Shown: positions 11,159-53,654, counted from the stretch's first letter. The stretch is 64,000 bases of DNA from Phycisphaerae bacterium (GCA_024102815.1 JAGFJJ010000069.1:271116-335115); one strand, 5' to 3'. Program-made: numbers and translations. The notes: generated by a model from the letters alone, not told the origin.

Positions 11159-12574
11159 ATGACCACAGGTACCGCCGTCGCCGATGCTGATTCCCTCTCC
11201 GTGCCAACGGCGGTGGAAGCACGGTCCACGCTCGTAACCGGCTCCGTTCGCCGGAAGCTCTTTGTCCTCGCCATGCCCGTTCTGGCCGAGCAGTTGCTCA
11301 ACACGGCGGTGGGGACATTCGACATTTTTCTCGCCGGCCGGCTCAGCGCCGCCGCGACCTCCGCCGTGGGACTGGCCGCTTACGTTGCGTGGCTTGTTTC
11401 CATGCTCGCCGCCATGATCGGGATCGGCACGACGGCCCTCGTTTCCCGTCACGAAGGCGCGGGCGACCGGCACGAGGCGAACCATGTCGCCAACCAGTCT
11501 CTGACGCTTGCCGTCGCGCTCGCCGTCTTGATAGCCGCACTCATCTACGGCATCGCCCCCGCCATTGCAACGTACTGCCGCATGACCGGCGAGTCCTTCA
11601 CGATCACCGTCGACTACCTGCGCATCGGTGCCCTCGGCCTTGCCTGCACCACGGTCACGCTGGTCGCCTGCGCCGCCCTTCGTGGCATCGGGAACATGCG
11701 CACCCCCATGTTCATTTTCGCGCTGATCAATCTGCTCAACATGAGCGTTTCCTGGGCATTGGTCTATGGACCGGGGCCGATCCCATCTCTCGGTGTGCGG
11801 GGGATCGTCACGGGTACTGTCGTGGCACATGCAGTGGGGCTCGCTCTCACGCTGGTCTTGCTTGCACGGGGGCGCGTCGGGCTGCGGCTCGTTCCGCGGG
11901 AGACGGTTCCTACCTGGGAGCGGACGCGCCGCATTCTGCATGTTGGGGTACCGGCCGGCGCCGACGGTGCAATCATGTGGTCCGGCCACTTCTGCTACCT
12001 GGCGATTCTCTCACGACTCGCGGATCCCCCCCTCGGCACGGCCTATTTTGCAGCACACATGATCGCCGTTCGCACAGAATCCCTTGTCTATCTGCCGGCC
12101 GTGGCCTGGGCGGCCGCTACCGCGACCATGATCGGACAGGCTCTCGGAGCGGGAAACCCGATCCGCGCCAAGCAAGTGGGCCATGAAGGCGTTCGGCAGT
12201 GTGGAATCCTGGCGGTGATCGTCTCCGCGGTTTTGTTCATCGGTGCAAATACCGTCTACGCCGTGATGAGTTCTGACCCGCTCGTGAGGGAGGCCGGCAC
12301 TGCGCCATTCCGGGTGCTCTTTGTCCTTACGCCGGCACTGGTCGTATCGATCGTCTATGTCGGCGGACTACGCGGCGCGGGCGACACGCGCACACCCATG
12401 CTGATCACCATTGTGGGCATTACCTTGCGGCTTGCTGTGGGCTACCTGGGCGGCATCGTCCTGCAGATGGGCCTTCTCGGAGCCTGGATGGGCATGTTCA
12501 CGGATATGATCTGGCGGGCCATTGCATCCAGTGTGCGCTATTTCCGTGGCAAATGGCTGCAGACTCGCGTGTGA
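11159..12574 (+). CDS. MATE family efflux transporter
   Basis: 12-TM pattern, LAMPVLAEQLLNTAVGTFDIFLAGRLS N-terminal MATE signature. Start moved to ATG 11159 (MTTGTAV); the ORF is open from 10898 but that part overlaps the divergent gene. Confidence 0.85.
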   Translation: MTTGTAVADADSLSVPTAVEARSTLVTGSVRRKLFVLAMPVLAEQLLNTAVGTFDIFLAGRLSAAATSAVGLAAYVAWLVSMLAAMIGIGTTALVSRHEGAGDRHEANHVANQSLTLAVALAVLIAALIYGIAPAIATYCRMTGESFTITVDYLRIGALGLACTTVTLVACAALRGIGNMRTPMFIFALINLLNMSVSWALVYGPGPIPSLGVRGIVTGTVVAHAVGLALTLVLLARGRVGLRLVPRETVPTWERTRRILHVGVPAGADGAIMWSGHFCYLAILSRLADPPLGTAYFAAHMIAVRTESLVYLPAVAWAAATATMIGQALGAGNPIRAKQVGHEGVRQCGILAVIVSAVLFIGANTVYAVMSSDPLVREAGTAPFRVLFVLTPALVVSIVYVGGLRGAGDTRTPMLITIVGITLRLAVGYLGGIVLQMGLLGAWMGMFTDMIWRAIASSVRYFRGKWLQTRV

Positions 12575-35045: not shown

Positions 35046-35225
35046 CAAGTTGGGTTCGATCGGCGAGCATGCGCGCCGAGTGCATCTCTCGGCAGCCGGC
35101 CGGTCATTCCGATACCTATTCAGCCCCGAGTCTTGTCCCTGGCACGGAATGCCAGGGAATAGTGAGTAATTCAAAGAGGCCCAATCGGATAAGACTTGGC
35201 CATTCGCTGCCACACGGAGAGTATC

Positions 35226-37577
35226 ATGATTTCGTCCGCAACATCCCCCCTTACCATCGCCCGTGGCCAGAAAGGAATTCTGCCCGGCGTCCTGCTCGCC
35301 CTGCTGGCGGCGGCGCCGGTTCTGGCCCAGACCACCACCATGAAGCCCGAGGTCGAGGATCGCGTCAAACGTGCGTCGATCATGATCTTTATGGCCGTTT
35401 CCGAGCGCGAAAAAGGTGACACGCCTCTGGGCTCCGGATCGGGGTTCTTCATCAATGGAACCGGCTTGGCGATAACCAACAACCACGTCGTAGACCCGAC
35501 GCACATGAAAAGCCCGGCCGAGAAACAGAACTTCCATTATCGCGCCGGTCGATTGACCTGGACGGCGATCGTCAACTCCGGCGTGGACGGTGAGGAGAAG
35601 AAGTACGACGCCATGGTCATCTATCAGAATGAGACGGCGGACCAGGCCCTTCTCCAAGTCTATGCCGATGACCAGGGCACGCTGCTGAAGACACCGAATT
35701 ATCTGCGGCTGCTCCCGGAATCCCGTCTGGAGGAGCGCATGCCCGTGTGGGCCTTTGGGTTTCCGGGCGGCCCATCGCAGCGGATCGAGAACAACCTCAA
35801 TCCGAAAGTCTCTATTACCGCCGGAAATGTGCTCCAGTACCCCCGCACGCCCGGCGGACGGATCCGCATGATCTACACGGATGTGATCGCCCGCCCGGGC
35901 AACAGCGGCGGGGCGATGGTCAATGCAGATGGTTATGTCCTTGGCGCGGTCACGCTCATGAAGGCGCCCGAGGGCCGGGAGGATACCGGCGGGGCGAAGT
36001 ACTCGTCTCTGTCACCCGCATCGATTTCGAAAGAGCTCTTGCACAACGCCTTCGTGCTCGGGAAGGTGCCCGCGCACACGGACGTCACGCCGTTCATGAG
36101 CGCCCTGCCCCGCGTCCGCGGGCGGCTTAACGTACCGGAGTACGAGCGCCTCAACGACAAGGATGTGCTCTACTTCAATGATGGTGACCGGATTCACGGG
36201 GCCATCGCAAGCTCCACCATTACCTGGCCGACTTCAGTCGGAACACTGGAGGTCCCGGTCAGTGCCGTGGCCTACATCATCAATAACGATGAAGGATCGC
36301 ATCTGTTTCTGGAGGGCGGCAACTACCTCGCAGCGACGTCGAATGTCAAAGCCACGATCAAGTTCCAGCCCCAAGGCGGTGAACCGACCGATGTGGACGT
36401 GAAGAACGTCGCCGTCATCGGGTTCAAGACAGAGGACCGCGAAATCTCTCCGGTGGAGGGTGACGTCTTCGTGCTCGACTCCGACGCAGGTCATCTTGTC
36501 GTCAAGGGTGTATCCGGCTCGGCCTCCTTTGCCGGACGAATCGGTGCCATTCAGGTCAAGCTCCCCAATCTCATCCGCGCCTCGCGTCAACCCGACGGGT
36601 CCACGGTTGTGTTGATGCAGGACGGCCGGCGGATGACCGGACGGTTCGACGCCGGGAAGTTCGAGGCGACCATCGCCGCGACGGGAACGCCGATCGCCAT
36701 CGACCTCTCCGGCATCAACTGGATGACCGTTCGCGAAGAGCACCAGCAGGCGGGTATTACGGCGGGTTCGACGCTGCTTGACGTTCTCACTGGCGCGGAT
36801 GACCAGGTCCTTCAGACGGCTCGGGACCTCCAGGGCGGCGATCTTGCGAAAGCACGGGAGACGGTGAATCAGCTTACCGACTCCAGCACCATGAAGAAAT
36901 TCACCGACGCGAAGAAAGACCAGGTACGCTTACTCGAAGCGGTGCTGCTGCTTCGTGAAGGCAGATACGATGAGTCCACCCGTGCCTTTCGGCGCGTGGC
37001 CCGAGCCGATGACAACAACCTGGCTGCTTTTGCGTCCGGCTACGGCATGGTCCTGAAGGAAAACGAGCGGACCGGTTACGAATTCGACGGCAAACCCTTC
37101 AGCGATCGGCAGGCTTTCCAGCGAGCCGGGCTAGAGACGGCACGGCGCGTCGTCGCGGAAGCCCGCAGCGCAATCAAAGACGCCCGCGGGCGCGAAGGCA
37201 AGAATCGTGGCGAATACGCCCGCACAATCGGCGATGTGAAGAAGTACGAGGATGTCCTGACCGGAGCTGCCGTGTTCATCGGAACCGATGCCGAAGATGT
37301 ACTGGTTCGCTTGTGGAAAGTCGCCATCGACACCGGATACAGAGAGCTGGATCGCTTGGAGAAGGTCGAGCAGGAACAGCAAGAGGACGCGCGGGGCGGC
37401 AGTCGAAAGGGACGCGGATCAAACCTCCTTGCCCAGCGTGAAATGGACGAGATCAAGCGCCTCCGTGAAGACACTGAAGAGACCCTGCGGACCTATTACT
37501 TCAAGCGCTTCGACTACGGATTTCGAATTGAGGATCCGGACATCCAGGCACTCAAGGAGAAGAAGGCCGACGTGTAG
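35226..37577 (+). CDS. Secreted trypsin-like (S1) serine protease with long C-terminal extension
   Basis: ATG 35226 (GGAGA upstream) gives a signal peptide ending ...AAAPVLAQ. Triad contexts ITNNHVV (His), DQALLQV (Asp), RPGNSGGAMV (Ser). About 550 aa of beta-rich then helical extension. Confidence 0.8.
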   Translation: MISSATSPLTIARGQKGILPGVLLALLAAAPVLAQTTTMKPEVEDRVKRASIMIFMAVSEREKGDTPLGSGSGFFINGTGLAITNNHVVDPTHMKSPAEKQNFHYRAGRLTWTAIVNSGVDGEEKKYDAMVIYQNETADQALLQVYADDQGTLLKTPNYLRLLPESRLEERMPVWAFGFPGGPSQRIENNLNPKVSITAGNVLQYPRTPGGRIRMIYTDVIARPGNSGGAMVNADGYVLGAVTLMKAPEGREDTGGAKYSSLSPASISKELLHNAFVLGKVPAHTDVTPFMSALPRVRGRLNVPEYERLNDKDVLYFNDGDRIHGAIASSTITWPTSVGTLEVPVSAVAYIINNDEGSHLFLEGGNYLAATSNVKATIKFQPQGGEPTDVDVKNVAVIGFKTEDREISPVEGDVFVLDSDAGHLVVKGVSGSASFAGRIGAIQVKLPNLIRASRQPDGSTVVLMQDGRRMTGRFDAGKFEATIAATGTPIAIDLSGINWMTVREEHQQAGITAGSTLLDVLTGADDQVLQTARDLQGGDLAKARETVNQLTDSSTMKKFTDAKKDQVRLLEAVLLLREGRYDESTRAFRRVARADDNNLAAFASGYGMVLKENERTGYEFDGKPFSDRQAFQRAGLETARRVVAEARSAIKDARGREGKNRGEYARTIGDVKKYEDVLTGAAVFIGTDAEDVLVRLWKVAIDTGYRELDRLEKVEQEQQEDARGGSRKGRGSNLLAQREMDEIKRLREDTEETLRTYYFKRFDYGFRIEDPDIQALKEKKADV

Positions 37578-38574: not shown

Positions 38575-38604
38575 TTGACTTGCTTTTCGGCCGTTTCATA
38601 CAAT
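38575..38604 (+). promoter_or_regulatory. Candidate near-consensus sigma70-type promoter for the 38806-44377 gene string
   Basis: TTGACT (38575-38580), 18-nt spacer, TACAAT (38599-38604), inside a locally AT-enriched patch. This implies a roughly 195-nt leader. Confidence 0.4.
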
Positions 38605-38805: not shown

Positions 38806-40134
38806 ATGGAGGGGACCCCCACCACCACGCGCGGCCTCGCTGCCGCCAACCACCGTGCCCCGATAGTGGCGAAGAAGGCCCTCTTGCGTGCCAACGTTTC
38901 GATGGCATGCCTGGTCGCATGTGCATTGAGTGCCGCATTGGCGGCGTCGAACGCGCGAGCCGTGGATGGCCGTGCCGTCGCCGAACAGAAGGGCAGCATG
39001 CTTATCTTCCCGTCCATTGAGATCCGATGGGATGATAGCGGAGCACTTCTCCAAGATACGTTCATCGAACTCACCAATGATCACACGGAGGATGTTTTTG
39101 TCCAGATGTATTTCGTGAATGGAGATCCTCCGCTGGAGGCAGATTACAATCCTGGGGGAATGCTGCGCGAACGGGCTCATGCGGGTTGGAACAACATCGG
39201 CGTGCAGATTCTCCTGACAGGAAATGAGCCCACATACTGGTCGGCGCACACCGGACTGCCGATCGGTGTGGCACCGTGGGAACTGCTGGATCCGGGTGAC
39301 CCACCCGGCAGACCAAACCTCTATTATGAGAACGAGCGGACGGTTCGCGGATTCCTGGTCGCATGGGCGGTCGACGCCCAGGGGCGCGAAATCCGATGGA
39401 ACCATCTCTCGGGGACCGCGGTAGCCATCGACTACGAACAGATCGCCGCATGGGAATATAAACCCTATGCCTTCCAGTCTCGTGGCAGCTCGAACGGAAT
39501 GCAGCCCACGAGCTGCGAGGTCCTGAGTGCGGAGAGCGGACAGTGCCTTGACGCCCGCATTGTTCCTGGGCGTCTGGATCTGGACGGATTTGAGTACGAT
39601 TCGTGCCCCAGTGCACTTATGTTCGAATTCATCGCGGCAGGTGCCGGTGTCCCCGGCCGGCCCGACGCAACCGCAGTTGTTCCCGTGGAGACGATGCTCA
39701 CGCTGATGCCCTGTGCGGTTGACCTCCGCCAGGAGACGGACGGGCCCGTAACGACGAAAGCCAACTTCGACATCTGGAACGCCAATGAGGTGCGCTTCTC
39801 CGGAACGGAGCGTTGTGTGACCTGCTGGGATTCGACCCCGCTTGATGTGTACACCTATCTCGGCGCGGCCAATCACTTCCTGGTTTACAACCTCCAGACG
39901 GACCGGGGGAAGGCCCGCGTCCGGGGACTGGCCAGCCAGCGTTGTGACGCGCCGGGCGTGGTCAGCGAGGCCTCCGCATTGCTCGGCGTGTCCCGCAAGG
40001 CGCTCTACTTCAGCGAGAGAACGGCCTATGCAGGCTCACCTCTGTCCATACAGGGGCTACTCGGCGGCCGGATTCAATACGACGTCATCCAGCCGACCAG
40101 TGAGCGGCTACCCAAACGGGAGGGTCAACCGTAA
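38806..40134 (+). CDS. Orphan secreted protein, no family recognised
   Basis: GGAGAGGGAG precedes ATG 38806. Signal-like KKALLRANVSMACLVACALSAALAASNARA. Beta-rich sequence with 7 Cys. It is followed after 24 nt by the next gene. Confidence 0.7.
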   Translation: MEGTPTTTRGLAAANHRAPIVAKKALLRANVSMACLVACALSAALAASNARAVDGRAVAEQKGSMLIFPSIEIRWDDSGALLQDTFIELTNDHTEDVFVQMYFVNGDPPLEADYNPGGMLRERAHAGWNNIGVQILLTGNEPTYWSAHTGLPIGVAPWELLDPGDPPGRPNLYYENERTVRGFLVAWAVDAQGREIRWNHLSGTAVAIDYEQIAAWEYKPYAFQSRGSSNGMQPTSCEVLSAESGQCLDARIVPGRLDLDGFEYDSCPSALMFEFIAAGAGVPGRPDATAVVPVETMLTLMPCAVDLRQETDGPVTTKANFDIWNANEVRFSGTERCVTCWDSTPLDVYTYLGAANHFLVYNLQTDRGKARVRGLASQRCDAPGVVSEASALLGVSRKALYFSERTAYAGSPLSIQGLLGGRIQYDVIQPTSERLPKREGQP

Positions 40135-40158: not shown

Positions 40159-42012
40159 TTGGAGTGCTATGTCGGAAAGCAAAACATCGTGAACGCAACT
40201 CGCTCCATTCTCCGACGCGCGACACTCTTTCTGGCGCTGGCTGTGATGGCCGCGCCGGCGCTTGCGCAGACTTCGATCCTCACGCTGGGCCCGGGAAGGG
40301 CGTATCAGCGCGCCGACCTGTTTAACCTCACGTTGGCCGGGGAGAGCATGAGCACCGCGCGGCAAGCGCTGGTCAACGACGGATTCGTCATCGACACCAG
40401 TGAGTCGTTCACCGTCCCAAGTCTTTCCGGGTACGACATTGTCGCGCTCGGGCTGTTTGCGCCTGGCAGCGGCTTGGAAGTTCCCGAACAGCTCGCCATC
40501 GAGAGCTTCGTTCGCGCCGGCGGGGCGCTCGTCTACTTCGGAGACAACGACGGGTTCGCCGCGGCCAACGAAAGCGTCGCGGGCCTGTTTGGCGTTGTGT
40601 TCTCCAACGATCCGATCTCAAATGCCGCACGAAACGTTCTCGCACCCAACCACCCCCTCCTGTCCGGACCAGGTGGGGCCGTTACGGAATATGACGGCAG
40701 CGGAAACCTCACCAACTATTTCGGCGGGATACTGAACCTGGGACCCTATGCTCAAGCGGTACTTCGTACGCCGAATCGAACGGTTGTGGCGGTGATCGAG
40801 CGGAACGCCCTTCAGCCTGGAAGCGGTCCCGTCGTGTTCCTTTCCGACATCAACGGCTTTCTCGATGCCGGCATTGGCACAATTCACCTCGGCAACAATC
40901 TCGCATTGCTGCGCAACATCTTCGCGTTTGCCAGGGGCTCCTGTACAAGTGATGCCCAGTGCGACGATGGCGCTTTCTGCAACGGCGCGGAGCGCTGCAA
41001 TGCCGGAACGTGCGTAGCGGGAGTACCACCGTGTGTCGCCAGCGGAAAGCCCTGCAACGAACTGGTCGACGCCTGTGCGGCATGCGTGGCCGATACTGAA
41101 TGCGATGACGGCGTGTTCTGCAATGGCATGGAAGTGTGCGGGACGAGCGGTGTGTGCGAGTCGGGTCCGCCCCCATGCGGAGACTCGTGCGAGTCCTGCA
41201 ACGAATCCAACGAGACCTGCACCTGGTGTATTTTCGATCTGGATAGCGACGGCGTTATCGCAACTGAGGACGCCAATCTGCTCAGCGAGTGCATGGGCGC
41301 CTGCTACGCATCAGGCAGTCCCTGTGCAGCCGCCAACTTCGACAACGACCCGGCCAACTGCGTGGGCTCGGCGGATTTCGCCGCGTTCAGCGCCTGCTAC
41401 GGACTGGTTTGCGCGGAATGCCCCGGGTGCTCCGGGCCGCCTTCTCAGGCTCGTCCCATTGCTAGTGCGCCGAAGTTCGCCGATCGGCTCCGCCTCGCGG
41501 TCACTACAACCACGAATCCATCTCCAAGCGACGCCGTCGATCGACTGCCACCCTCACGTATGGACTGGCTCCGCGGGCAGACCTTCTACGTCGAGGTCTG
41601 GGTCTCGGCGGTCGCCGCGCCATCCGCCGGTGTCGCCGCCGCCTATCTGGATGTGCAGTGGAATGAAAATCAACTCGATCTGCTGAGCAGCCGGGTCAGC
41701 GATTCACTGGGTGCGCTGGCACAGCCGGGAAGACCTGGTGCGGGCGCTCTTCGCGGCGTGGGCGGATGCACGACGCCGGGACACCTGAGCACGGGAAGGG
41801 TCGGCCAGTGGTTGCGTGTCGCGACGTTGCGGATGCGCGCATCGTCCGGCGGCACCGGAGAAGTGACGGTCGGACTTCCCGGCGGTCCGCTCGGCGTAAG
41901 TCTCTTGGGTGAGTACCGCGATGTTCTACCGGGAGAGACGAGCACGATCGCCGCACCCGTAAGGACCGGTGATCCTCGAAACGATGTAAGCGTCGGGGCA
42001 ATCGAACACTGA
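40159..42012 (+). CDS. Secreted multidomain protein: alpha/beta N-domain, 2 Cys-rich modules, dockerin-like pair, cohesin-like C-domain
   Basis: Signal [19 protein letters not shown] (TTG 40159, or GTG 40189). The N-domain SGYDIVALG...[14 protein letters not shown] is reminiscent of ThuA/DUF4159-type folds (tentative). CDDG[AV]FCNG modules. [17 protein letters not shown] and [18 protein letters not shown] segments. Confidence 0.8.
40941..41229 (+). repeat. Two ~42-aa Cys-rich modules (C-x4-C-DDG-x-FCNG-x-E-x-C...)
   Basis: [27 protein letters not shown]... and [28 protein letters not shown].... The same module occurs in the next gene. Confidence 0.8.
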
Positions 42013-42076
42013 GGGACATTGGTACGCTGACCGCGGCGGGTTTCGGACCCGCCGACCATCGCTGAGACGCGCAACC

Positions 42077-44377
42077 ATGCAACACGTTCAACGTTACAAT
42101 CTCGCCTGGCTCTTTCTTGCATTGGTCACAATCGCACTCGTAAGTGCCGACCATGCCGCAGCACAGCCGGTGGTAAGCGCCCGCCTCCTGGCCGTGAAAT
42201 CCGCAGGCCTACTGGACGCCGTAACCGCATTGCCTCCGTCACAGACCGCCTATGAGGAGGGAGAGAGCTTCTTCCTGGAACTCTGGGTAACCACGAGCCA
42301 TCCGCAAGGACTGGCTTCCGTTTACGTGGATGTCGGTCTGTCTGCGCCGCTGATTACACTTCAGGATCCCAACGCCGGCCAACTTTTCACGTTCTTCACG
42401 AGTGGATTGTCTTCGCCGACGGGAATTGATGATATCGGCGGCTCCCATCTGGGCACCGCTTTCTGTGCCGACCAACTGGGCCTGACACCGCGCTGGGCTC
42501 GCCTGGCGATTGTTTCGGCACAGGCCACGACCAATGGGATGTGCACGCTGCAACTCGGCCCTTCGATGTCCCCTGCATTGGGGATCAGTATCTGCGGCAT
42601 GTTCGGAGACGTTCCGGTCGCGTCCGTGGATTACGGCCCGCCACTGAACATCGAGGTCATCGCTGTTCAGCGGTGCACGGCTAACGCCGATTGTGACGAC
42701 GGCGTCTTCTGTAATGGTTCGGAAGTCTGTGCCGAAGGTGTCTGCGCGCCCGGAGCGTTTCCGTGCGAGACGGGTCAGGGATGCGATGAAGCCAGCGAGA
42801 CGTGCGGTTCGTGCTTTGCCGACGGCGAATGCGACGATGGCGTGTTCTGTAATGGCGAGGAGACCTGTGACGTCTCTACAGGCGAGTGTGTTCCTGGGGC
42901 GTTCCCCTGCGGCGAGCTCGAAGGTTGCTTCGAGTCCATCGGAACATGCGGCGCCTGCACGGCCGACGCCCAGTGCCAGGATGGCCTATTCTGCAACGGC
43001 TCGGACTCGTGCGATCTGATCACCGGTATCTGTCTTCACAGTGGTTTCCCGTGTGGCGGAGCCGAAGGGTGTCTGGAGGACGTCGACGCGTGCGGACCGT
43101 GCAATGTCGATGATCAGTGCGACGATGGCCTGTTCTGTACGGGCGTGGAAACCTGCGACGTCGGTTCAGGCATTTGCATGGTTGGCGAGCTGCCATGCGG
43201 CGGCGAAGGCGTCTGTATCGAGTCAACCGAAAGCTGCGGAGACTGCGCAAGCGACGCCGATTGTGATGATGGTCTGTTCTGCAACGGCTCGGAGACCTGT
43301 GACCTCGCCAGCGGCACCTGCGTGACAGGAATCGCGCCTTGCCCCGGAGATTGTTACGAAGAAATCGACTCCTGCACGCCTCCGCCCCCCACGGGCGGTG
43401 GGGGTGGTGGAGGAAGTGGCGTTCCGGCTGACAACGACGGCGACGGCGTGCCCAATACCGAAGATAATTGCTTCGCAGTGGCGAACCCCGACCAGGCCGA
43501 TCTGGACAACGACGGCATCGGCGATGCCTGTGAAACGGATACAGACGGCGACTCGATTCCCAACGCACTGGACAATTGCCTGACGGTCCCGAATCCGAAT
43601 CAGCTTGATTCAGACGGAGACGGCTTCGGAAATGCGTGCGACGGATGCCCCAACGATCCCTCCAAGGTGATCCCCGGAGCTGACGGCTGCGCCAATGATG
43701 GCGGTGAGCCTCCGGGACCGCCCCCGAACAACGGGGATGACATCGACGGCGATGGCTGGGACAACGGCGAGGACAATTGTCCCGCGCTGAGCAACCCCGA
43801 CCAGATGGATGCCGACGGCGACGGTCTGGGCAACGCCTGCGACAATTGTCCGGGCATCGAAAACCTGACCCAGGAAGATGATGACGACGATGGTGTCGGA
43901 AATGCTTGCGATCATTGCCCCAATACGACCGATAACGTGGACGTCAATGCGTTCGGGTGTAGCGCGGAGCAGGACCCCGACGGCGATGGCATGCCCGATA
44001 ACAACGACGATACGCCGGGCAATCCGGTACCGACCGATAATTGTCCCGGTTTCTTCAACCCTGACCAGAATGATCGCGACAACGATGGCGTGGGAGACGC
44101 CTGTGACAACTGCCCCGACATCGCAAACACCAACCAGGACGACTTTGACGGCGATCGCTGGGGCGATGTCTGCGATAATTGTCTGATAACTCCCAATCCC
44201 GACCAGGAAGATGCCGACGCCGACGGTGTCGGCGACCAATGTGAGGACCTCGATCCGGGAACTTATGATCCACCTCGGCAACTCTGTGGCGCGTGCGGAT
44301 TAGGCACTCCCATGGCATTCTGGTTCTGCGCTTTGTTTTTAGCGGCCGTTCCGTGTAAGATGCGTCGTAGTCGGTGA
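42077..44377 (+). CDS. Exported scaffold-like protein: cohesin-like N-domain, 5 Cys-rich modules, Gly linker, TSP type-3 repeats, C-terminal sorting-signal-like tail
   Basis: Signal LAWLFLALVTIALVSADHAAAQ. Domain order is read directly from the translation. The tail is CGACGLGTPMAFWFCALFLAAVPCKMRRSR. Confidence 0.85.
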   Translation: MQHVQRYNLAWLFLALVTIALVSADHAAAQPVVSARLLAVKSAGLLDAVTALPPSQTAYEEGESFFLELWVTTSHPQGLASVYVDVGLSAPLITLQDPNAGQLFTFFTSGLSSPTGIDDIGGSHLGTAFCADQLGLTPRWARLAIVSAQATTNGMCTLQLGPSMSPALGISICGMFGDVPVASVDYGPPLNIEVIAVQRCTANADCDDGVFCNGSEVCAEGVCAPGAFPCETGQGCDEASETCGSCFADGECDDGVFCNGEETCDVSTGECVPGAFPCGELEGCFESIGTCGACTADAQCQDGLFCNGSDSCDLITGICLHSGFPCGGAEGCLEDVDACGPCNVDDQCDDGLFCTGVETCDVGSGICMVGELPCGGEGVCIESTESCGDCASDADCDDGLFCNGSETCDLASGTCVTGIAPCPGDCYEEIDSCTPPPPTGGGGGGGSGVPADNDGDGVPNTEDNCFAVANPDQADLDNDGIGDACETDTDGDSIPNALDNCLTVPNPNQLDSDGDGFGNACDGCPNDPSKVIPGADGCANDGGEPPGPPPNNGDDIDGDGWDNGEDNCPALSNPDQMDADGDGLGNACDNCPGIENLTQEDDDDDGVGNACDHCPNTTDNVDVNAFGCSAEQDPDGDGMPDNNDDTPGNPVPTDNCPGFFNPDQNDRDNDGVGDACDNCPDIANTNQDDFDGDRWGDVCDNCLITPNPDQEDADADGVGDQCEDLDPGTYDPPRQLCGACGLGTPMAFWFCALFLAAVPCKMRRSR
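42674..43375 (+). repeat. Five tandem ~42-aa Cys-rich modules
   Basis: [19 protein letters not shown]..., [19 protein letters not shown]..., CTADAQCQDGLFCNGSDSC..., CNVDDQCDDGLFCTGVETC..., CASDADCDDGLFCNGSETC.... Confidence 0.85.
43427..44249 (+). repeat. Thrombospondin type-3-like Ca2+-binding repeats
   Basis: Reiterated D-x-D-x-DG-x-x-D-x-x-DNC-x-x-x-x-NP-x-Q-x-D (for example DNDGDGVPNTEDNCFAVANPDQADLDNDGIGDACE; DRDNDGVGDACDNCPDIANTNQDD). Confidence 0.85.
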
Positions 44378-44632
44378 GCCGATTCGGGGGAACGGACTTC
44401 ACCCGCCGACGGTGAATGCGGAAACATCGAGGGGGAACGGACACACCCGGTGCGCGGGCCGCCAGGCGCGGCGTCACGATCGATTCGTGATTCACGACCA
44501 AGAGCGAACAGCCTCGGAAGCAGCGTGCGATAACTACGTCGCCGCCCCGCCATGACGGGCGAGTCGTTCGCTTTTTCGTGAGTGTCGCCGGCATGACACC
44601 CGCCGCCAGAGGAGAAGCCAAGGAATTCAGCG

Positions 44633-46000
44633 ATGCGGAAAAGAAGCGTAATAATCGGGGCGGGGATCTGGCTGATTATCGGAGGACTCTCCGGTACAGC
44701 GGCATTCGGACAGTGTGCATGGGATCCGGCTTTTGGAAACCCGGGCGTGAGCGGCGGGACTTTCCCAGCAGTCAATGCCCTAGCGGTCTACGACGACGGC
44801 GGCGGACCGGCCCTCTACATCGGCGGGTCGTTCAGCCAGGTGGGCGGCGTTCTCGCAAACAACATTGCCAAATGGAACGGCTCCTCCTGGAGCGCCCTGT
44901 CCTTCGGCGTCGACGCGCCTGTGTTTGCCATGACGGTGTACAACGACGGGACCGGCCCGGCCCTGTACGTCGGCGGGATGTTTACAACCGCCGGTCTCGT
45001 CACCGCGAATCGGGTCGCCAAGTGGAATGGCACGAGCTTCTCCGCCGTGGGTGGCGGAACCAGCAGCGTGGTTTATGCTCTGACCACATTCAATGACGGA
45101 ACGGGAACGGCCCTGTACGTGGGTGGCTCCTTTGCGACGGTCGGTCCCGGCAGCGGCTTGCTGGTCAACAATATCGCCAAATGGAACGGGACCTCCTGGA
45201 GCAAGCTTGGGACGCAGGGTGCCGGTTCCGTGGTCAACAGCCTGACGACATGGAATTCGGGGACCGGAAACGCGCTGTATGTCGCTGGGCTCTTTACCAG
45301 CGTCTCGGGAATCCCGGCCAACCGCGTCGCCATGTGGAATGGAATCGGATGGTCCGGACTGACGAGTGGTCTGAACAACGACGCAAACGTCGTCCTGGGA
45401 TCCAACGGCGGCCCGATCGGTACGTACCTTTACACCGGTGGCCTGTTTTCCACTGCAGGCGGGCCGTTGAGCCCTGCATCCAACATTGCCCGCTGGACCG
45501 GGACGTTCTGGACCAGCGTCGGCGCCGGGCTCAACGGCAAGGTGCTCGATTTGGCGATCCTGGATGAAGGATCCGGGCCGGTACTCATGGCTGGCGGAGA
45601 GTTTGATGCCGCCAACGGAACTGCGGTCAATCAAGTCGCGCGGTGGAACGGCACAGGCTGGTCGTCGGTGGGCGCGGGAACGAACGACACCGTTCGCGCC
45701 CTACTGTCCACGGATGAGACCAACGCCATCGGCCGCGCGCTCTACGTCGGCGGTCAATTCACGCAGGCAAACAATACGACGGCCAACCGCATCGCCCGCT
45801 GGGTCTGCTCGGTGACAATAGACGACTGCACGGGCGACGGCCGATTCGACCTCGACGACTTCGCGCGATGGGACGATTGTGACAACGGTCCCAACGGCGG
45901 ATTCGGGTCGTCGAACTGTGACTGCCTCGACCGGGACGAGGACGGCGACCTCGACCTGAGGGACTATGCCACGTTCCAGCGGATCTTTGCCGGGCCATGA
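44633..46000 (+). CDS. Secreted 7-blade beta-propeller-like repeat protein with dockerin-like C-terminus
   Basis: Signal VIIGAGIWLIIGGLSGTAAFGQ. Seven ~50-aa repeats. C-terminal DCTGDGRFDLDDFARW and DRDEDGDLDLRDYATFQRIF. Confidence 0.85.
   Translation: MRKRSVIIGAGIWLIIGGLSGTAAFGQCAWDPAFGNPGVSGGTFPAVNALAVYDDGGGPALYIGGSFSQVGGVLANNIAKWNGSSWSALSFGVDAPVFAMTVYNDGTGPALYVGGMFTTAGLVTANRVAKWNGTSFSAVGGGTSSVVYALTTFNDGTGTALYVGGSFATVGPGSGLLVNNIAKWNGTSWSKLGTQGAGSVVNSLTTWNSGTGNALYVAGLFTSVSGIPANRVAMWNGIGWSGLTSGLNNDANVVLGSNGGPIGTYLYTGGLFSTAGGPLSPASNIARWTGTFWTSVGAGLNGKVLDLAILDEGSGPVLMAGGEFDAANGTAVNQVARWNGTGWSSVGAGTNDTVRALLSTDETNAIGRALYVGGQFTQANNTTANRIARWVCSVTIDDCTGDGRFDLDDFARWDDCDNGPNGGFGSSNCDCLDRDEDGDLDLRDYATFQRIFAGP
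44761..45810 (+). repeat. Seven ~50-aa repeats (V-x-A-L-x-x-[FY]-NDGTG-x-ALYVGG-x-F-...-AN-x-IAKWNG-x-x-WS)
   Basis: For example VFAMTVYNDGTGPALYVGGMFTTAGLVTANRVAKWNGTSFSAVGGG and VVYALTTFNDGTGTALYVGGSFATVG...VNNIAKWNGTSWSKLG. Confidence 0.8.
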
Positions 46001-48449: not shown

Positions 48450-48887
48450 GATACTTCCGCGTGTGGAGATACCGGTTGTTCCGGCGTGTAACATTCCGGT
48501 TGTCCGCATGATCGCTTTCGTGCGCCGGCGCGGAGTATAGGTCGTCGCGCATGAACCGCAAGCGTCGCCCGGTGTCTTACTCCTATCGGAAGAAGACCCG
48601 TCCTTTTCCTGAGTCGAACATAGACTTCGCTATAGCACTTTTCTCGGCAATCGATCCTGTCGCTGAGAGGATTATCGGACAGAAAATCCGATATTCGTCC
48701 GAGAAACTCGAAGCGCCGAAGCCGCTCATCCATTGACTATCGGTCCGCCTGTTGAGACAATGGTTCATCAATACCAAGGGGTCGAGTCTCGCTCGAATGG
48801 GGGATCGGGGGCGCGGCTCAAGAAAACCGCCGATAACCCGCTTTGCCTGATCGCCGGCTATCGTTTCCGCCTTCCCGGTTTGTGCCC

Positions 48888-51800
48888 ATGTTTTGGTTTC
48901 GTCGGTTACTCCTGGGGATGGTTGCGATCACGTCCGTCACGGCCGGTGAGCACGACCGCTTGGCCGGACGATACCTGCCGGCCCATGAGGGACCCTCGAC
49001 CGATCCCTTGCGGACAACGGATACGGAAGGCGCTTCATCGCCGTCCCGCGGACCATTGGCAAGCACCTGGATTCGCGGCCGCTATGTCAGTGTCCAGGTC
49101 AATGTCGACGCCAACGGCGCCAACATCGTCGGAGACGCCGCCAACGAGCCCTCCCTCGCCATCGACCCCACCAACCCCCTGCGGATGGTTATCGGGTGGC
49201 GGCAGTTCGATTCCGTAACTTCGGATTTTCGCCAGGCCGGCTGGGCATACAGCCACGACAGCGGACGCCACTGGACCTTTCCCGGCGTCATCGAACCCGG
49301 CGTCCGGCGGAGCGATCCGGTTCTTTTCAGCGACGCCGGCGGTAGTTTCTTTTATTTGAGCCTCGGGCGCAGCGGAGAGCTCTTCACGACTCAGCTCTTT
49401 CGCTCGACGGACGGCGGGCTTTCCTGGTCCAGAATCGGACCGACCGACTTTGGCGGGGACAAGCCCTGGGCAGCCGTCGATCCAACCGGCGGAATCGGCG
49501 GCGGAAACATCTACGTCTCCTGGGGATCAATCGGATGCTGCGACAACCGCATCTTCATGCGCTCCGTTGACGGGGGCATGACCTTCGACACGCCAGTAAC
49601 GATTCCGCAGCAGCCCATCTGGGGCACCATTTCGGCCGGGCCCGACGGCACGGTCTACGTCGCGGGAAAGCGCCCCCTTTTTGACAACGAGTTCATCATC
49701 GCCCGCTCATCAACCATCAAGGACCCGGCCAATCCTCTCGAATTCGACTTCGGTGCGGAAGTCGACATGGGGGGCCGATTTCTTGCCAACCCCGGAACAG
49801 GGCCCAATCCGGACGGACTCTACGGGCAAGTCTGGGTCGCCACGGACCATTCCGATCGCCCCACCCGCGGCAACGTATACATGCTTTGCTCCGTCACGCC
49901 GTTCGATCCTTTCAACTTCGATCCCCTCGACGTCCACTTTGTTGCCAGCACGAACGGCGGTCTCAATTGGAGCGCCCCGGTTCGCATCAACGACGACCCC
50001 GTGGGGAATTTCGCTTGGCAGTGGTTCGGCACGATGTCGGTTGCTCCCAACGGCCGCATCGACGTCATCTGGAACGACACCCGCAACGACATCACGCAAA
50101 CGTATTCCGAGCTCTACTACGCCTATTCTCTTGACGGCGGAATCACCTGGTCCGAGAACGAGCCGGTAAGCCCGCCGTTTGCCCATGCCGTCGGCTACCC
50201 CAACCAGGAGAAGCTCGGTGACTACTACCACATGATCTCCGACAATGCCGGCGCTCACGTGGCCTACGCCGCTACCTTTAATGGAGAGCAGGACGTCTAC
50301 TATCTCCGCATCCTCGCCCGCGATTGCAACGAGAACGGCATTCCCGACGAGGAGGACGTCGCGAACGGGACAAGTCCCGATTGCAACGGGAATGACGTTC
50401 CCGACGAGTGCGAACTTACTGGAAACGACTGCAACGGCAATCAGGTACCGGACGTCTGCGATGTGGATGCTGGAACGAGTTCCGACTGCCAGGACGACGG
50501 CATCCCCGACGAGTGCCAGCTTGCCGATCAGGATTGCAACGACTCGGGCGTTCCCGATACGTGCGAGTTGCCCGGTAACGACTGCGACGGAAACGGCGTC
50601 CTTGACTCCTGCGAGCTGAGCGGCCGCGACTGCAACGCCAACGGACGAATCGACGCATGTGATACGGCCGGTGGATTCAGTCTCGACTGTCAGGGTGACC
50701 AGATTCCCGACGAATGCCAACTCGCGGACAATGACTGCGACGGAAGCGGCATCCCCGATGCGTGCGAACTCGCTACGCGCGACTGCAACGGCAATGGTGT
50801 GCTCGACTCGTGCGACGTGTCGGCAGGTGCGAGCCTTGATTGTCAGGGAAACGGCCAGCCGGATGAGTGCGAACTCCAGCAGAACGACTGCAATTTCAAC
50901 AACATTCCCGACGACTGCGAACTGGTCGGCAACGACTGCAACCTCACGGGGATTCCCGATGAGTGCGAGCTCAGCGGCAACGACTGCAACGCGACCGGCA
51001 TCCCCGACGAATGCGAACTGATCGGTAACGACTGCAATCACAATATGCAGCCGGACTCCTGTGACATCGCATCAGGCACGAGCGCCGACTGCCAGCTCAA
51101 TGGCGTTCCGGACGAATGTGAACTCGCCGGCAACGACTGCGACGGCAGCGGCGTTCCCGACGAGTGCGAGCTTTCCGGACGAGACTGCAATGGCAACCTC
51201 CGGCTGGATTCGTGTGACATTGCTGCGGGGAGCAGCCCGGATTGCCAGCTCAACGGCACTCCGGACGAGTGTGAACTCATCGGCAACGACTGCAACGCCA
51301 CCGGCGTCCCGGATGAATGCGAGCTGGCCGGCAATGACTGCGACGGCAGCGGCGTTCCCGACGAATGCGAACTTCCCGGAAACGATTGCAATGGAAATCA
51401 ACGGCTCGATTCTTGCGACTTGGCGTCCGGCTCCAGCCGGGATTGTCAATCCAACGCCGTTCCCGACGAGTGCGAGCTTGCCGGCAACGACTGCAACCTG
51501 ACGGGGATTCCCGATGAGTGCGAGCTCGCCGGCAACGACTGCAATGCAAACGGTCGGCCGGACACGTGCGACATTGTCTCCGGTGCGAGTAAGGATTGCC
51601 AGGTCAACGGCATCCCCGACGAATGCGAACTTGCCGGCAACGACTGCGACGGCAACAGCATCCCCGACCAGTGTGAATTGTCCGGTCGGGACTGCGACGG
51701 AAACCACGTGCTGGACTCCTGCGAGCTCTCCGGGCGGGATTGTGACAGTAACGCCAAATTGGACGTCTGCGAACTTTCCGGCCGGGATTGCGACGGCAAT

Positions 51801-53654
51801 CACGTACTCGATAGCTGCGAACTCGCCGGGCGCGACTGCAACAACAACGGCGTGCTCGACCCGTGCGACCTTGCCCGTGGGACAAGCCAGGACTGCCAGT
51901 CCAATGGCATCCCCGACGAGTGCGAACTCGCAGGCGATGACTGCAACGGCGACGGTGTTCCCGACACCTGCCAGATCACCACGCGAGACTGTAATCGAAA
52001 TGACAGGCTCGATTCATGCGACATCGCCGCCGGCACGAGTGCGGATTGTCAGAGCGACGGCCGTCCCGACGAGTGCCAGCTTCTTGGCAACGACTGCAAT
52101 CAGAATGGCGAGCCCGACGAATGTGATCTGATCGCAGGGACTTCCGAGGACGCCAACAACAACGGGCTCCTCGATGAGTGCGAACCGCAGCCATGCGATC
52201 TGGTCAACGTTGCCCGAATCCTGCCCGTTGGCGGCGGGCTCGGCGATACCTTTGGATCGGCCGTTGATATCGACGGCGAGTGGATGCTTGTTGGTGCACA
52301 GAGCTTCGACACGTCATTCGACCGCGCCGGCGCGTCGTGGTTCTACCGTATTCAAGGCAACGACATCCTGCCGGGCACGCGGGTCCTGGCGAATGATGGT
52401 GACCGCGACGACCGCTTTGGTTGGTCCGTGTCGCTCGACGGCAATATCGCCGCGATTTCCGCCATCTACGACGACGATGTCACATCCAACTCGGGATCGG
52501 TCTACGTCTATCGACTGATCGGCCAGACATGGACGTTCGAGGCCAAGCTGAGTGCTTCGGATCCCGGTTCCGGAGATGCCTTCGGTCACAGCGTTTCGGT
52601 TGGCGGCGACCGGATTCTTATCGGCGCCCGCTACGACGATGACCGCGGAAGCAACAGCGGTTCCGCTTACGTCTTCCGATGGACGGGTTCATTGTGGGTA
52701 CAGGAAGCCAAGCTGCTCGCCGCCGACGGCCAGCCCTCCGATTTCTTCGGTTCCGCCGTCGCGCTGTCGGGGACTGTGGCGGTCGTCGGTGCCTTTGGCG
52801 AGGACGAGCGCGGCGGGACCGCGGGCGCGGCCTACGTTTATGAAAGGACCGGGACGCTTTGGACTCAGAAGGCCAAGTTGCTGGCGCTGGATGGCAAGAC
52901 CGATGACTGGTTCGGCGCGGCCGTCGCCACCGACGGAGACCGAATACTCGTCGGTGCCCGCTACACCGATGAACAGGGCTCCGGGTCCGGTTCGGCCTAT
53001 TTCTTCCAGAAAGTAGCCGGAATCTGGCAACCCGCGGGCAAGATCCTGCCCGCTGATGGCGCCGCCGGCGACGGATTCGGCGTTGCCGTGGATCTTGACG
53101 GGTCCTTCGCCATCGTTGGTGCGGACGGTGGCGATGATGGCGCCACGAATGCCGGAGCAGCCTACATCTTTGCCTGGGATGGTGTCAGTTGGGCTCAGCA
53201 GGCGAAGATTCTTCCGTCCGTTCGAAACTCGGGCGCGCAATTTGGCATAGCCGTCGGCCTCTCCGGTTCGAATGGAGTCGCAGGCGCTCAATATGCGAAT
53301 AACTTGTCCGGCGTCAGCACCGGCGCCGCGAGTTTGTTTACCGGAATTGACGACTGCAATCGAAACCTCGGGCTCGATGCTTGTGATCTTGTTAACGGGC
53401 TTAGCTCCGACAGTGATGGAAACGGCCGTCCCGATGAGTGCGACTTGACCGTGCCGGGGGACTACGACCTGGACGGGGATGTTGACCTTGCGGATTACGC
53501 TGGATTCCTTGGCTGCGCTGCCGGTCCAGCGTCGGTACTCAGCGCTTCGAGCGGAAACACGCTCCGGTGCCTTGGGGCCTTCGATTCTGACGGCGACGAG
53601 GACATTGATCTGTTCGATTTCGCTCGATTCCAGGCGATTCTGCAAACCCCCTGA
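48888..53654 (+). CDS. Giant (1588 aa) secreted protein: BNR/sialidase-like propeller, 37 Cys-flanked acidic-loop repeats, 7 FG-GAP repeats, dockerin-like tail
   Basis: ATG 48888 gives MFWFRRLLLGMVAITSVTAG. Asp-boxes SHDSGRHW, STDGGLSW, SVDGGMTF, STNGGLNW, SLDGGITW. The repeat arrays are listed separately. The tail is GDYDLDGDVDLADYAGFL...FDSDGDEDIDLFDFARFQAIL. Confidence 0.9.
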   Translation: MFWFRRLLLGMVAITSVTAGEHDRLAGRYLPAHEGPSTDPLRTTDTEGASSPSRGPLASTWIRGRYVSVQVNVDANGANIVGDAANEPSLAIDPTNPLRMVIGWRQFDSVTSDFRQAGWAYSHDSGRHWTFPGVIEPGVRRSDPVLFSDAGGSFFYLSLGRSGELFTTQLFRSTDGGLSWSRIGPTDFGGDKPWAAVDPTGGIGGGNIYVSWGSIGCCDNRIFMRSVDGGMTFDTPVTIPQQPIWGTISAGPDGTVYVAGKRPLFDNEFIIARSSTIKDPANPLEFDFGAEVDMGGRFLANPGTGPNPDGLYGQVWVATDHSDRPTRGNVYMLCSVTPFDPFNFDPLDVHFVASTNGGLNWSAPVRINDDPVGNFAWQWFGTMSVAPNGRIDVIWNDTRNDITQTYSELYYAYSLDGGITWSENEPVSPPFAHAVGYPNQEKLGDYYHMISDNAGAHVAYAATFNGEQDVYYLRILARDCNENGIPDEEDVANGTSPDCNGNDVPDECELTGNDCNGNQVPDVCDVDAGTSSDCQDDGIPDECQLADQDCNDSGVPDTCELPGNDCDGNGVLDSCELSGRDCNANGRIDACDTAGGFSLDCQGDQIPDECQLADNDCDGSGIPDACELATRDCNGNGVLDSCDVSAGASLDCQGNGQPDECELQQNDCNFNNIPDDCELVGNDCNLTGIPDECELSGNDCNATGIPDECELIGNDCNHNMQPDSCDIASGTSADCQLNGVPDECELAGNDCDGSGVPDECELSGRDCNGNLRLDSCDIAAGSSPDCQLNGTPDECELIGNDCNATGVPDECELAGNDCDGSGVPDECELPGNDCNGNQRLDSCDLASGSSRDCQSNAVPDECELAGNDCNLTGIPDECELAGNDCNANGRPDTCDIVSGASKDCQVNGIPDECELAGNDCDGNSIPDQCELSGRDCDGNHVLDSCELSGRDCDSNAKLDVCELSGRDCDGNHVLDSCELAGRDCNNNGVLDPCDLARGTSQDCQSNGIPDECELAGDDCNGDGVPDTCQITTRDCNRNDRLDSCDIAAGTSADCQSDGRPDECQLLGNDCNQNGEPDECDLIAGTSEDANNNGLLDECEPQPCDLVNVARILPVGGGLGDTFGSAVDIDGEWMLVGAQSFDTSFDRAGASWFYRIQGNDILPGTRVLANDGDRDDRFGWSVSLDGNIAAISAIYDDDVTSNSGSVYVYRLIGQTWTFEAKLSASDPGSGDAFGHSVSVGGDRILIGARYDDDRGSNSGSAYVFRWTGSLWVQEAKLLAADGQPSDFFGSAVALSGTVAVVGAFGEDERGGTAGAAYVYERTGTLWTQKAKLLALDGKTDDWFGAAVATDGDRILVGARYTDEQGSGSGSAYFFQKVAGIWQPAGKILPADGAAGDGFGVAVDLDGSFAIVGADGGDDGATNAGAAYIFAWDGVSWAQQAKILPSVRNSGAQFGIAVGLSGSNGVAGAQYANNLSGVSTGAASLFTGIDDCNRNLGLDACDLVNGLSSDSDGNGRPDECDLTVPGDYDLDGDVDLADYAGFLGCAAGPASVLSASSGNTLRCLGAFDSDGDEDIDLFDFARFQAILQTP
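50322..52184 (+). repeat. 37 tandem 16-aa/19-aa coding repeats (DC-N-x-N-G-x-PDEC-E-L-x-G-x)
   Basis: Units were counted directly from the translation. Short units: DCDGSGVPDECELSGR, DCNATGIPDECELIGN. Long units: DCNGNLRLDSCDIAAGSSP, DCNHNMQPDSCDIASGTSA. Confidence 0.9.
52240..53340 (+). repeat. Seven FG-GAP-type repeats
   Basis: GDTFGSAVDIDGEWMLVGA, DDRFGWSVSLDGNIAAISA...SGSVYVY, GDAFGHSVSVGGDRILIGA...SGSAYVF, SDFFGSAVALSGTVAVVGA...AGAAYVY, DDWFGAAVATDGDRILVGA...SGSAYFF, GDGFGVAVDLDGSFAIVGA...AGAAYIF, GAQFGIAVGLSGSNGVAGA. Confidence 0.85.

Follow-up and report, generated by a model that had tools for sequence, protein, structure and literature searches.

What two neighbouring genes of a Phycisphaerae bacterium have in common, and what their products might build, was asked for a stretch of 64,000 nt with a G+C content of about 61% (GCA_024102815.1 JAGFJJ010000069.1:271116-335115; here called the window, with all coordinates counted from its first letter). 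The genes, here named A and B, encode modular proteins, and the last part of protein A resembles the first part of mature protein B. Both segments were found to belong to one family of all-beta domains of about 150 amino acids (aa), within which they are, by sequence comparison, ancient paralogues. The family, not yet covered by a profile model, is probably a very distant relative of cohesin, and a dockerin-like module directly adjoins the domain in much of the family. It is proposed, with a probability of roughly 0.6, that a conserved unit of three genes (an upstream gene, A and B) encodes secreted modular proteins of a 'planctosome'-type, non-cellulosomal surface complex, in which B would be the anchored scaffold, A the adaptor, and proteins with dockerin-like tails would be recruited.

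The features of the two genes were placed by the evidence given in brackets (ORF, open reading frame; HMM, hidden Markov model; AF2, AlphaFold); signal peptides and the anchor of B were judged by eye from the sequence.

40159-42012, plus strand: gene A, putative adaptor (ORF)
40453-40851, plus strand: weakly ThuA/DUF4350-like N-terminal domain of A (Pfam DUF4350, E = 0.004-0.03, below threshold)
40936-41220, plus strand: two Cys-rich CDDGxFCNG modules of A (motif scan; BLASTP against the modules of B)
41215-41445, plus strand: Cys-rich dockerin-like module of A (79 bits, module HMM)
41500-41949, plus strand: cohesin-like domain of A, C-terminal subtype (95 bits, family HMM; 115 bits, HMM of subfamily cl8, the best fit)
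42077-44377, plus strand: gene B, putative surface-anchored scaffold (ORF; 64 bp downstream of A)
42185-42640, plus strand: cohesin-like domain of B, N-terminal subtype (122 bits, family HMM; 160 bits, HMM of subfamily cl15; AF2 model)
42674-43381, plus strand: five Cys-rich CDDGxFCNG modules of B (motif scan; BLASTP)
43421-44281, plus strand: thrombospondin type 3 (TSP3, calcium-binding) repeats of B (Pfam TSP_3, seven stretches, 3.1e-23; NCBIfam MtsC-like repeats below cut-off)
44273-44374, plus strand: C-terminal tail of B (CGACG, hydrophobic stretch, KMRRSR), putative membrane anchor or sorting signal (read from the sequence)

Protein A thus starts with a signal peptide, followed by the ThuA/DUF4350-like domain, two Cys-rich modules, the dockerin-like module and the cohesin-like domain. 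In protein B the signal peptide is followed by the cohesin-like domain, five Cys-rich modules, a Gly-rich linker, the TSP3 repeats and the tail (CGxCG, hydrophobic and Arg-rich parts). Protein A is identical to MCO6438896.1 ('hypothetical protein', from a Phycisphaerae bacterium metagenome-assembled genome, MAG). Two starts are possible for gene A, TTG at 40159 (longest ORF, 617 aa, also in Logan assemblies) and ATG at 40189 (NCBI, 607 aa), and the signal peptide is intact with either.

A domain family shared by proteins A and B

The initial annotation had aligned by eye the last 170 or so residues of A with the first 170 or so mature residues of B at two blocks. Both blocks were recovered inside a significant BLASTP alignment of aa 458-589 of A with aa 47-179 of B (28% identity over 140 aa, 48-52 bits, E = 6e-12 for the pair). 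Chance or compositional similarity was ruled out by shuffling: the real score of 48.9 bits compares with 13.8 ± 2.7 bits, and a maximum of 23.1 bits, in 200 shuffles of the B segment, so that the pairwise comparison proposed in that annotation bore it out. Its further claim that CDDGxFCNG modules are common to both proteins was also confirmed. The motif occurs twice in A (at 40960 and 41101) and five times in B (42692, 42830, 42974, 43118, 43262), and the best BLASTP segment across these modules has an E-value of 2e-25. Scanning of the 64-kb window with the family HMM revealed no third copy of the domain beyond those at 41500-41949 (A) and 42185-42640 (B).

A word-index protein search with the domain alone found nothing, and with an alignment of 49 sequences one protein only. 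An exhaustive HMMER search, using a two-sequence profile of the A and B domains as query, retrieved 436 representatives (clusters at 50% identity) at E <= 1e-3 and 180 at E <= 1e-10. Each copy of the domain spans about 146 aa as a self-contained unit; a protein has one to five copies, and the family carries the invariant motifs E-x-W, G-G-S and W-x-R. All nine looked-up members with an organism name belong to Planctomycetota (Phycisphaerae, Thermoguttaceae). Where source names were given, the proteins were called 'hypothetical' or were named after another of their domains, never after cohesin. Architectures were counted in 150 listed family representatives and Pfam co-occurrence in 71 full-length members; the alignment of 49 sequences was the one used for structure prediction. 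Other Pfam domains on the full-length proteins include Laminin_G_3, FG-GAP, Ig-like, Kelch and cadherin domains, and ThuA is present in two of the 71.

Within the family, the two window copies fall into different, position-specific subfamilies. The B subfamily comprises 47 members including the copy of B; 33 directly follow a signal peptide, and a neighbouring dockerin-like module is missing from 44 of the 46 library members. All 21 members of the A subfamily (cl8) lie within 60 aa of the C-terminus, 12 of them with a dockerin-like module immediately before the domain. The nearest relatives of the A domain are C-terminal domains of other proteins. Both subtypes also occur in a single chain in some family proteins (P0005, P0011, P0014, P0015), in the order N-terminal cohesin-like domain, Cys modules, dockerin-like module, C-terminal cohesin-like domain.

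That A and B lie next to each other on the same strand with a gap of 64 bp, and hold two module types in opposite order, would suit a recent gene duplication with permutation of domains, as the initial annotation had supposed. This origin is now considered highly improbable, because each domain is nearer to its counterparts in other organisms (34-46% identity for A, 40-65% for B) than the two are to each other (28%). The A domain scores 83 bits (34%) against its orthologue at a further locus, L013, and 48 bits against B; the B domain scores 110 bits (41%) against its L013 orthologue and is 65% identical to that of P0003. Moreover, the two domains differ in subfamily, position and partners, and the remaining parts of the proteins are unlike, with ThuA-like and dockerin-like modules in A versus TSP3 repeats and an anchor tail in B. 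The pair is already present in L001, L013 and L017, and since the arrangement is conserved in these other lineages, the paralogy is taken to be ancient.

Relation to cohesin and the dockerin-like partner module

A model of the B domain was built with AF2 and the 49-sequence alignment, the single-sequence model being unusable (predicted local distance difference test, pLDDT, 31). The resulting all-beta model (pLDDT 96.7, predicted template modelling score 0.91) has the flattened beta-sandwich (jelly-roll) of the cohesin type. The initial annotation had suggested a cohesin- or CARDB-type beta-sandwich, to be checked with Foldseek on a predicted structure. In this comparison with the PDB, cohesins and not unrelated folds gave the best matches. 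The top match was the ScaC cohesin of Ruminococcus flavefaciens (5lxv; E = 3.6e-4, probability 1.00, template modelling (TM) score 0.51), and cohesins of types I, II and III made up 31 of the 50 best. The CARDB part of the suggestion was dropped: for PF07705 no match was obtained in the window copies, the 49 members, the eight consensus sequences (Pfam) or the 50 best Foldseek matches.

Profile comparison pointed to cohesin as well. The family consensus matched Pfam Cohesin (PF00963) with 28.8 bits (E = 1.6e-6), above the gathering score of 24.1; one subfamily consensus reached 25.8 bits and one relative, P0006, 25.3 bits. Cohesin was the top or only match for five of eight consensus sequences, namely that of the family and those of four of the seven subfamilies (profile positions 8-76 of 139), and was matched by 4 of the 49 members. 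A profile search of the PDB with the family alignment again gave 5lxv as the best cohesin, at a non-significant E-value of 0.25. That the domain of A and B is a very divergent cohesin-like domain at the level of the fold is well supported; homology to cohesin is likely, resting on the N-terminal third and on the context in which the domain occurs. The cohesin part of the earlier suggestion was upheld at these two levels, the fold and remote homology.

This context is a second conserved module. Residues 346-432 of A hold two putative EF-hand-like loop-helix segments (16 and 18 residues) in a Cys-rich frame. Of the 150 listed family members, 93 proved by iterated search with this segment to contain the module. 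The closest PDB match of the A module is a dockerin, 2y3n_B, with both repeats aligned at a non-significant E-value of 0.05. The consensus of the module family matched Pfam Dockerin_1 (PF00404) over profile positions 2-50 of 57 with 24.3 bits (threshold 22.9), and in the 71 full-length proteins no other Pfam family co-occurs as often as Dockerin_1 (7 proteins). A match of PAN_1 to the dockerin-like segment of A (20.8 bits, below threshold) was taken as an artefact of the cysteine pattern. NCBIfam contains no model for the cohesin-like domain, for this module or for the tail of B, and the module HMM did not match the TSP3 repeats of B.

The two modules are almost always close neighbours. The dockerin-like module follows one cohesin-like domain at a median distance of 3 aa and precedes the next by a median of 32 aa; it stands within 60 aa after a domain in 86 of 88 cases and within 60 aa before a domain in 96 of 109. 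With C for the cohesin-like domain and d for the dockerin-like module, the architectures were C (44), CdC (34), CdCd (15), dC (13), CC (12) and CCdCd (9), besides rarer forms. In A the gap between module and domain is 18 aa. On these sequence grounds, the dockerin-like segment of A is a conserved partner module of the cohesin-like family, which the initial annotation had overlooked. Dockerin-like C-termini were also found on neighbouring proteins in the window and in L001, L016 and L017.

The proposed surface complex and its neighbourhood

Since the cohesin-like domains occur among dockerin-like modules, what the genes encode is probably a surface complex of a non-cellulosomal kind. Protein B would be its cell-anchored scaffold, as it ends in a hydrophobic, Arg-rich tail; its N-terminal cohesin-like domain, which has no dockerin-like module beside it, would be displayed at the distal tip of a stalk built from Cys-rich modules and TSP3 repeats. 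Protein A would act as an adaptor, with plug and socket in one chain, as its dockerin-like module is directly followed by a cohesin-like domain of the second subtype. Calcium-loaded dockerin-like modules would plug into cohesin-like domains. Candidate plugs are the module of A itself and the C-terminal modules of two proteins encoded downstream, a beta-propeller protein and a 1603-aa BNR/FG-GAP protein, and proteins with such tails would be recruited to A and B to give the surface complex. Paralogy, family, fold, remote matches to the Cohesin and Dockerin_1 profiles, neighbourhood of the two modules and synteny are observed; binding, binding partners, anchoring and biological role are inferred. 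The genes around A and B that enter into this proposal are the following.

38806-40134, plus strand: upstream gene, 442 aa, signal-peptide-like N-terminus, first in the unit of upstream gene, A and B
44633-46000, plus strand: beta-propeller protein, candidate cargo (Pfam Rax2/DUF5122; dockerin-like C-terminus 45803-45994)
48843-53654, plus strand: 1603-aa BNR/Cys-repeat/FG-GAP protein, candidate cargo (Pfam FG-GAP_2, 7e-95; dockerin-like C-terminus 53439-53648)

The upstream gene ends 24 bp before gene A, and searches of its product against Pfam, NCBIfam and the PDB gave no match. The unit of upstream gene, A and B is kept in L001 (a Phycisphaeraceae MAG), L013 and L017. Identities in L013 are 46%, 41% and 36% for the three products in this order; in L017, where the upstream-gene product is 55% identical, six genes are syntenic in the same order as in the window. 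Because its orthologue always lies directly 5' of the A orthologue (L001, L013, L017), the product of the upstream gene probably works together with A and B. Around the unit, a promoter-like sequence (38575-38604) and a terminator-like sequence (44556-44570) were noted; scan counts for such matches did not exceed shuffle expectation, and the matches therefore carry no weight. In the A orthologue of L001 (9579-10265) the cohesin-like domain precedes the dockerin-like module, the reverse of the order in the window, and about seven Cys modules are present versus two. Module order has thus been shuffled even between orthologues.

Among the loci examined, L016 (4219-13758, a Phycisphaerae MAG) appears to offer the clearest arrangement of enzyme and scaffold. 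It encodes in a row an S8 peptidase with a P-domain and, at its C-terminal end, a Cys-rich dockerin-like module (6e-23), P0005 (cohesin-like domain, Cys modules, dockerin-like module, cohesin-like domain), a 235-aa protein with little besides one cohesin-like domain, and, on the opposite strand, a 1225-aa protein with a dockerin-like tail. In the window, the module HMM matched three proteins: A, the BNR/FG-GAP protein (C-terminus, 22.2 bits, independent E-value 1.6e-5) and, weakly, the beta-propeller protein; none is a peptidase. The C-terminal module of the beta-propeller protein is significant in its orthologues in L001 (1.7e-6) and L017 (8.3e-10).

The N-terminal region of the 1603-aa protein is BNR/sialidase-like, below the curated cut-offs of Pfam. 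Next come Cys repeats of about 18 aa (C-E-L-x-G-N-D-C-N-x-N-G-x-P-D-x), dozens of them in tandem, then FG-GAP_2 repeats and the dockerin-like C-terminus. The same short Cys repeats occur in the B orthologue of L001, where they replace the CDDGxFCNG modules. A gene on the same strand, 1.2 kb before the cluster (35196-37577), encodes a 793-aa trypsin-like peptidase with TPR-like repeats; the module HMM did not match this peptidase, which is therefore not an obvious cargo.

The CDDGxFCNG modules themselves are about 47 aa long and without a Pfam match in A or B. Relatives of these modules match DUF4215, Dicty_CTDC and Disintegrin, and tblastn detected the modules in MAGs labelled Deltaproteobacteria, Myxococcota, Polyangia, Thermoanaerobaculia and Pseudomonadota. 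They seem to represent a stalk module that is widespread and not yet modelled. In the tail of B, CG[AST]CG is followed by a hydrophobic stretch of about 20 residues, which contains further Cys, and by an Arg-rich end, e.g. CGACGLGTPMAFWFCALFLAAVPCKMRRSR. This tail is shared by B (44273-44374) and by its orthologues P0003, P0035, P0038 and the L001 gene (about 12340-12444). The tail resembles the sorting or anchor signals of the MYXO-CTERM/PEP-CTERM type, but no NCBIfam sorting-signal model matched that of B at E <= 10.

Several results weigh against the proposed complex and its cohesin-dockerin basis. The window copies of the domain matched no Pfam family, Cohesin with its gathering score of 24.1 bits included, even at E <= 10, and no NCBIfam model. 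The match of the family consensus to Cohesin spans profile positions 8-56 of 139 only, and the three matches above threshold (family consensus, one subfamily consensus, P0006) are together limited to positions 3-72. Alignment by hhalign with the CipA cohesins of Clostridium thermocellum was weak (probability 2.6-2.9%, E about 0.017, N-terminal third only); the CipA sequences were checked against 1anu and 1ohz, and the cohesin profile was not diverse, since the search with CipA Coh2 gave close relatives alone. The TM-scores from Foldseek were just about 0.45-0.51, and non-cohesin sandwiches (YcnI, CLIPPER, AgI/II, pilins, AP2 mu) were mixed in among the cohesins. In the dockerin-like module of A the second loop is degenerate, and aa 353-429 gave no match to Dockerin_1 (gathering score 22.9) at E <= 10. 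Taken singly, the dockerin-like modules of the window reach significance neither in Pfam nor against the PDB. The C-terminal module of the beta-propeller protein in the window did not reach significance (8.9 bits, independent E-value 0.22), and no catalytic cargo with a dockerin-like tail is encoded within the window.

Two other readings of the domain were weighed on this background. The beta-sandwich might be a helper of the X-module kind that packs on and stabilises the dockerin-like module of the same chain, as in X-module-dockerin dyads, or might close with it into an intramolecular cohesin-dockerin clasp, the true partner of the module lying elsewhere. The immediate adjacency of module and domain fits such a helper, and the reversed order in L001 suggests that neighbourhood counts more than order. 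This reading is nevertheless considered unlikely: members of the B subtype stand at the mature N-terminus, exposed and, with two exceptions in 46, without a dockerin-like module beside them; the domain occurs with no such module at all in 44 of the 150 representatives; small proteins consist of a signal peptide and one domain (the 235-aa gene product of L016, P0047); and cohesins, not X-modules, come out best in both the structural and the profile comparisons. Less probable still is a ligand-binding adhesin or carbohydrate-binding sandwich, directed to a polysaccharide, a metal or a host or prey surface, whose likeness to cohesin would reflect a shared fold and no more. Adhesin, pilin and copper-binding sandwiches (CLIPPER 9ifr, AgI/II, RrgB, YcnI) did appear at Foldseek E-values near those of cohesins, the Laminin_G_3, FG-GAP, Ig-like, Kelch and cadherin domains of the family are typical of adhesins, and sequence likeness to Cohesin is confined to the first third of the profile. 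Cohesins are, however, the top match and the majority of the 50 best, Cohesin is the sole Pfam family matched recurrently, and so close a link to a dockerin-like module throughout the family would be unexpected for a generic adhesin domain.

The scaffold-and-adaptor complex is preferred to both. A wider picture is put forward tentatively, as we think it rather less likely to be right than wrong: a distinct cohesin-dockerin lineage, so far seen in Planctomycetota only (at least 436 clusters at 50% identity), in which the habitual fusions Coh-Doc-Coh(-Doc) might assemble head to tail into surface scaffolds or fibres. The three-gene operon might then form the cell-attached base, into which proteases, propellers and giant adhesin-like proteins could plug via dockerin-like tails.

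Comparison with known cohesin-dockerin systems

Cohesin-dockerin pairs are the textbook case of modular proteins that assemble with high affinity, and biotechnology makes wide use of them. To our knowledge, almost nothing is known of their roles outside cellulosomes. The A-B locus offers a compact test case for the 'planctosome' idea, with one anchored protein that exposes a single cohesin-like domain, one adaptor and two to three candidate partners. Current profile libraries miss the whole family (436 clusters, the proteins being annotated as hypothetical). A model made for this family would give an annotation to hundreds of large surface proteins in Planctomycetota; it could also be a source of new pairs with orthogonal binding.

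With the cohesins of PF00963 (R. flavefaciens ScaC, 5lxv; C. thermocellum CipA, 1anu and 1ohz) the domain has in common a length of about 150 aa, the all-beta sandwich, the N-terminal pattern G-x-x-[FV]-x-V-x-V ... G-[IL]-x-x ... [YV]-D, and the occurrence in multiple copies in secreted scaffold-like proteins beside dockerin-like modules. It differs in that the window copies are invisible to the profile, the first third alone can be aligned, and it has its own motifs E-x-W, G-G-S and W-x-R. In contrast to cellulosomal cohesins, the host is a Gram-negative-type planctomycete (Planctomycetota), no cellulases are encoded nearby, and the dockerin-like modules are mostly fused beside the domain and not carried by separate enzymes.

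Adaptor scaffoldins and X-module-dockerin dyads (Acetivibrio cellulolyticus ScaA, 3ghp, 4u3s) likewise combine cohesin and dockerin in one polypeptide, with a beta-sandwich adjoining the dockerin, and their type II cohesins are among the Foldseek matches of the B domain. In the family described here, however, the arrangement Coh-Doc-Coh(-Doc) is the rule and not the exception, and the dockerin-like module of the A type is stabilised by up to 11-14 cysteines.

A non-cellulosomal cohesin-dockerin system, the 'planctosome', has been hypothesised for freshwater Phycisphaerae (Andrei et al., ISME J 2019, PMC6461901). Its anchor was described as TSP3 repeats with one cohesin, also with lamin-tail (LTD) and proprotein-convertase P-domains, its adaptor as a signal peptide with dockerin, cohesin and a HYR domain, and its cargo as peptidases (PMC6461901). 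No experimental follow-up of this proposal was found in the literature. Compared by domain description, B corresponds to the anchor (TSP_3 and cohesin-like domain) and A to the adaptor (signal peptide, dockerin-like module, cohesin-like domain), and the S8 peptidase of L016, with its P-domain, ends in a dockerin-like module as the cargo would. Unlike the described anchor, B has Cys-rich modules and a hydrophobic tail and neither LTD nor P-domain; A has a ThuA-like domain instead of HYR; and the candidate cargo in the window is the beta-propeller and the BNR/FG-GAP protein, with no peptidase. On balance, the locus is seen as part of a non-cellulosomal cohesin-dockerin system, much as in the 'planctosome' proposal, with a divergent, unmodelled domain family and the habitual fusion of cohesin-like and dockerin-like modules as its variations.

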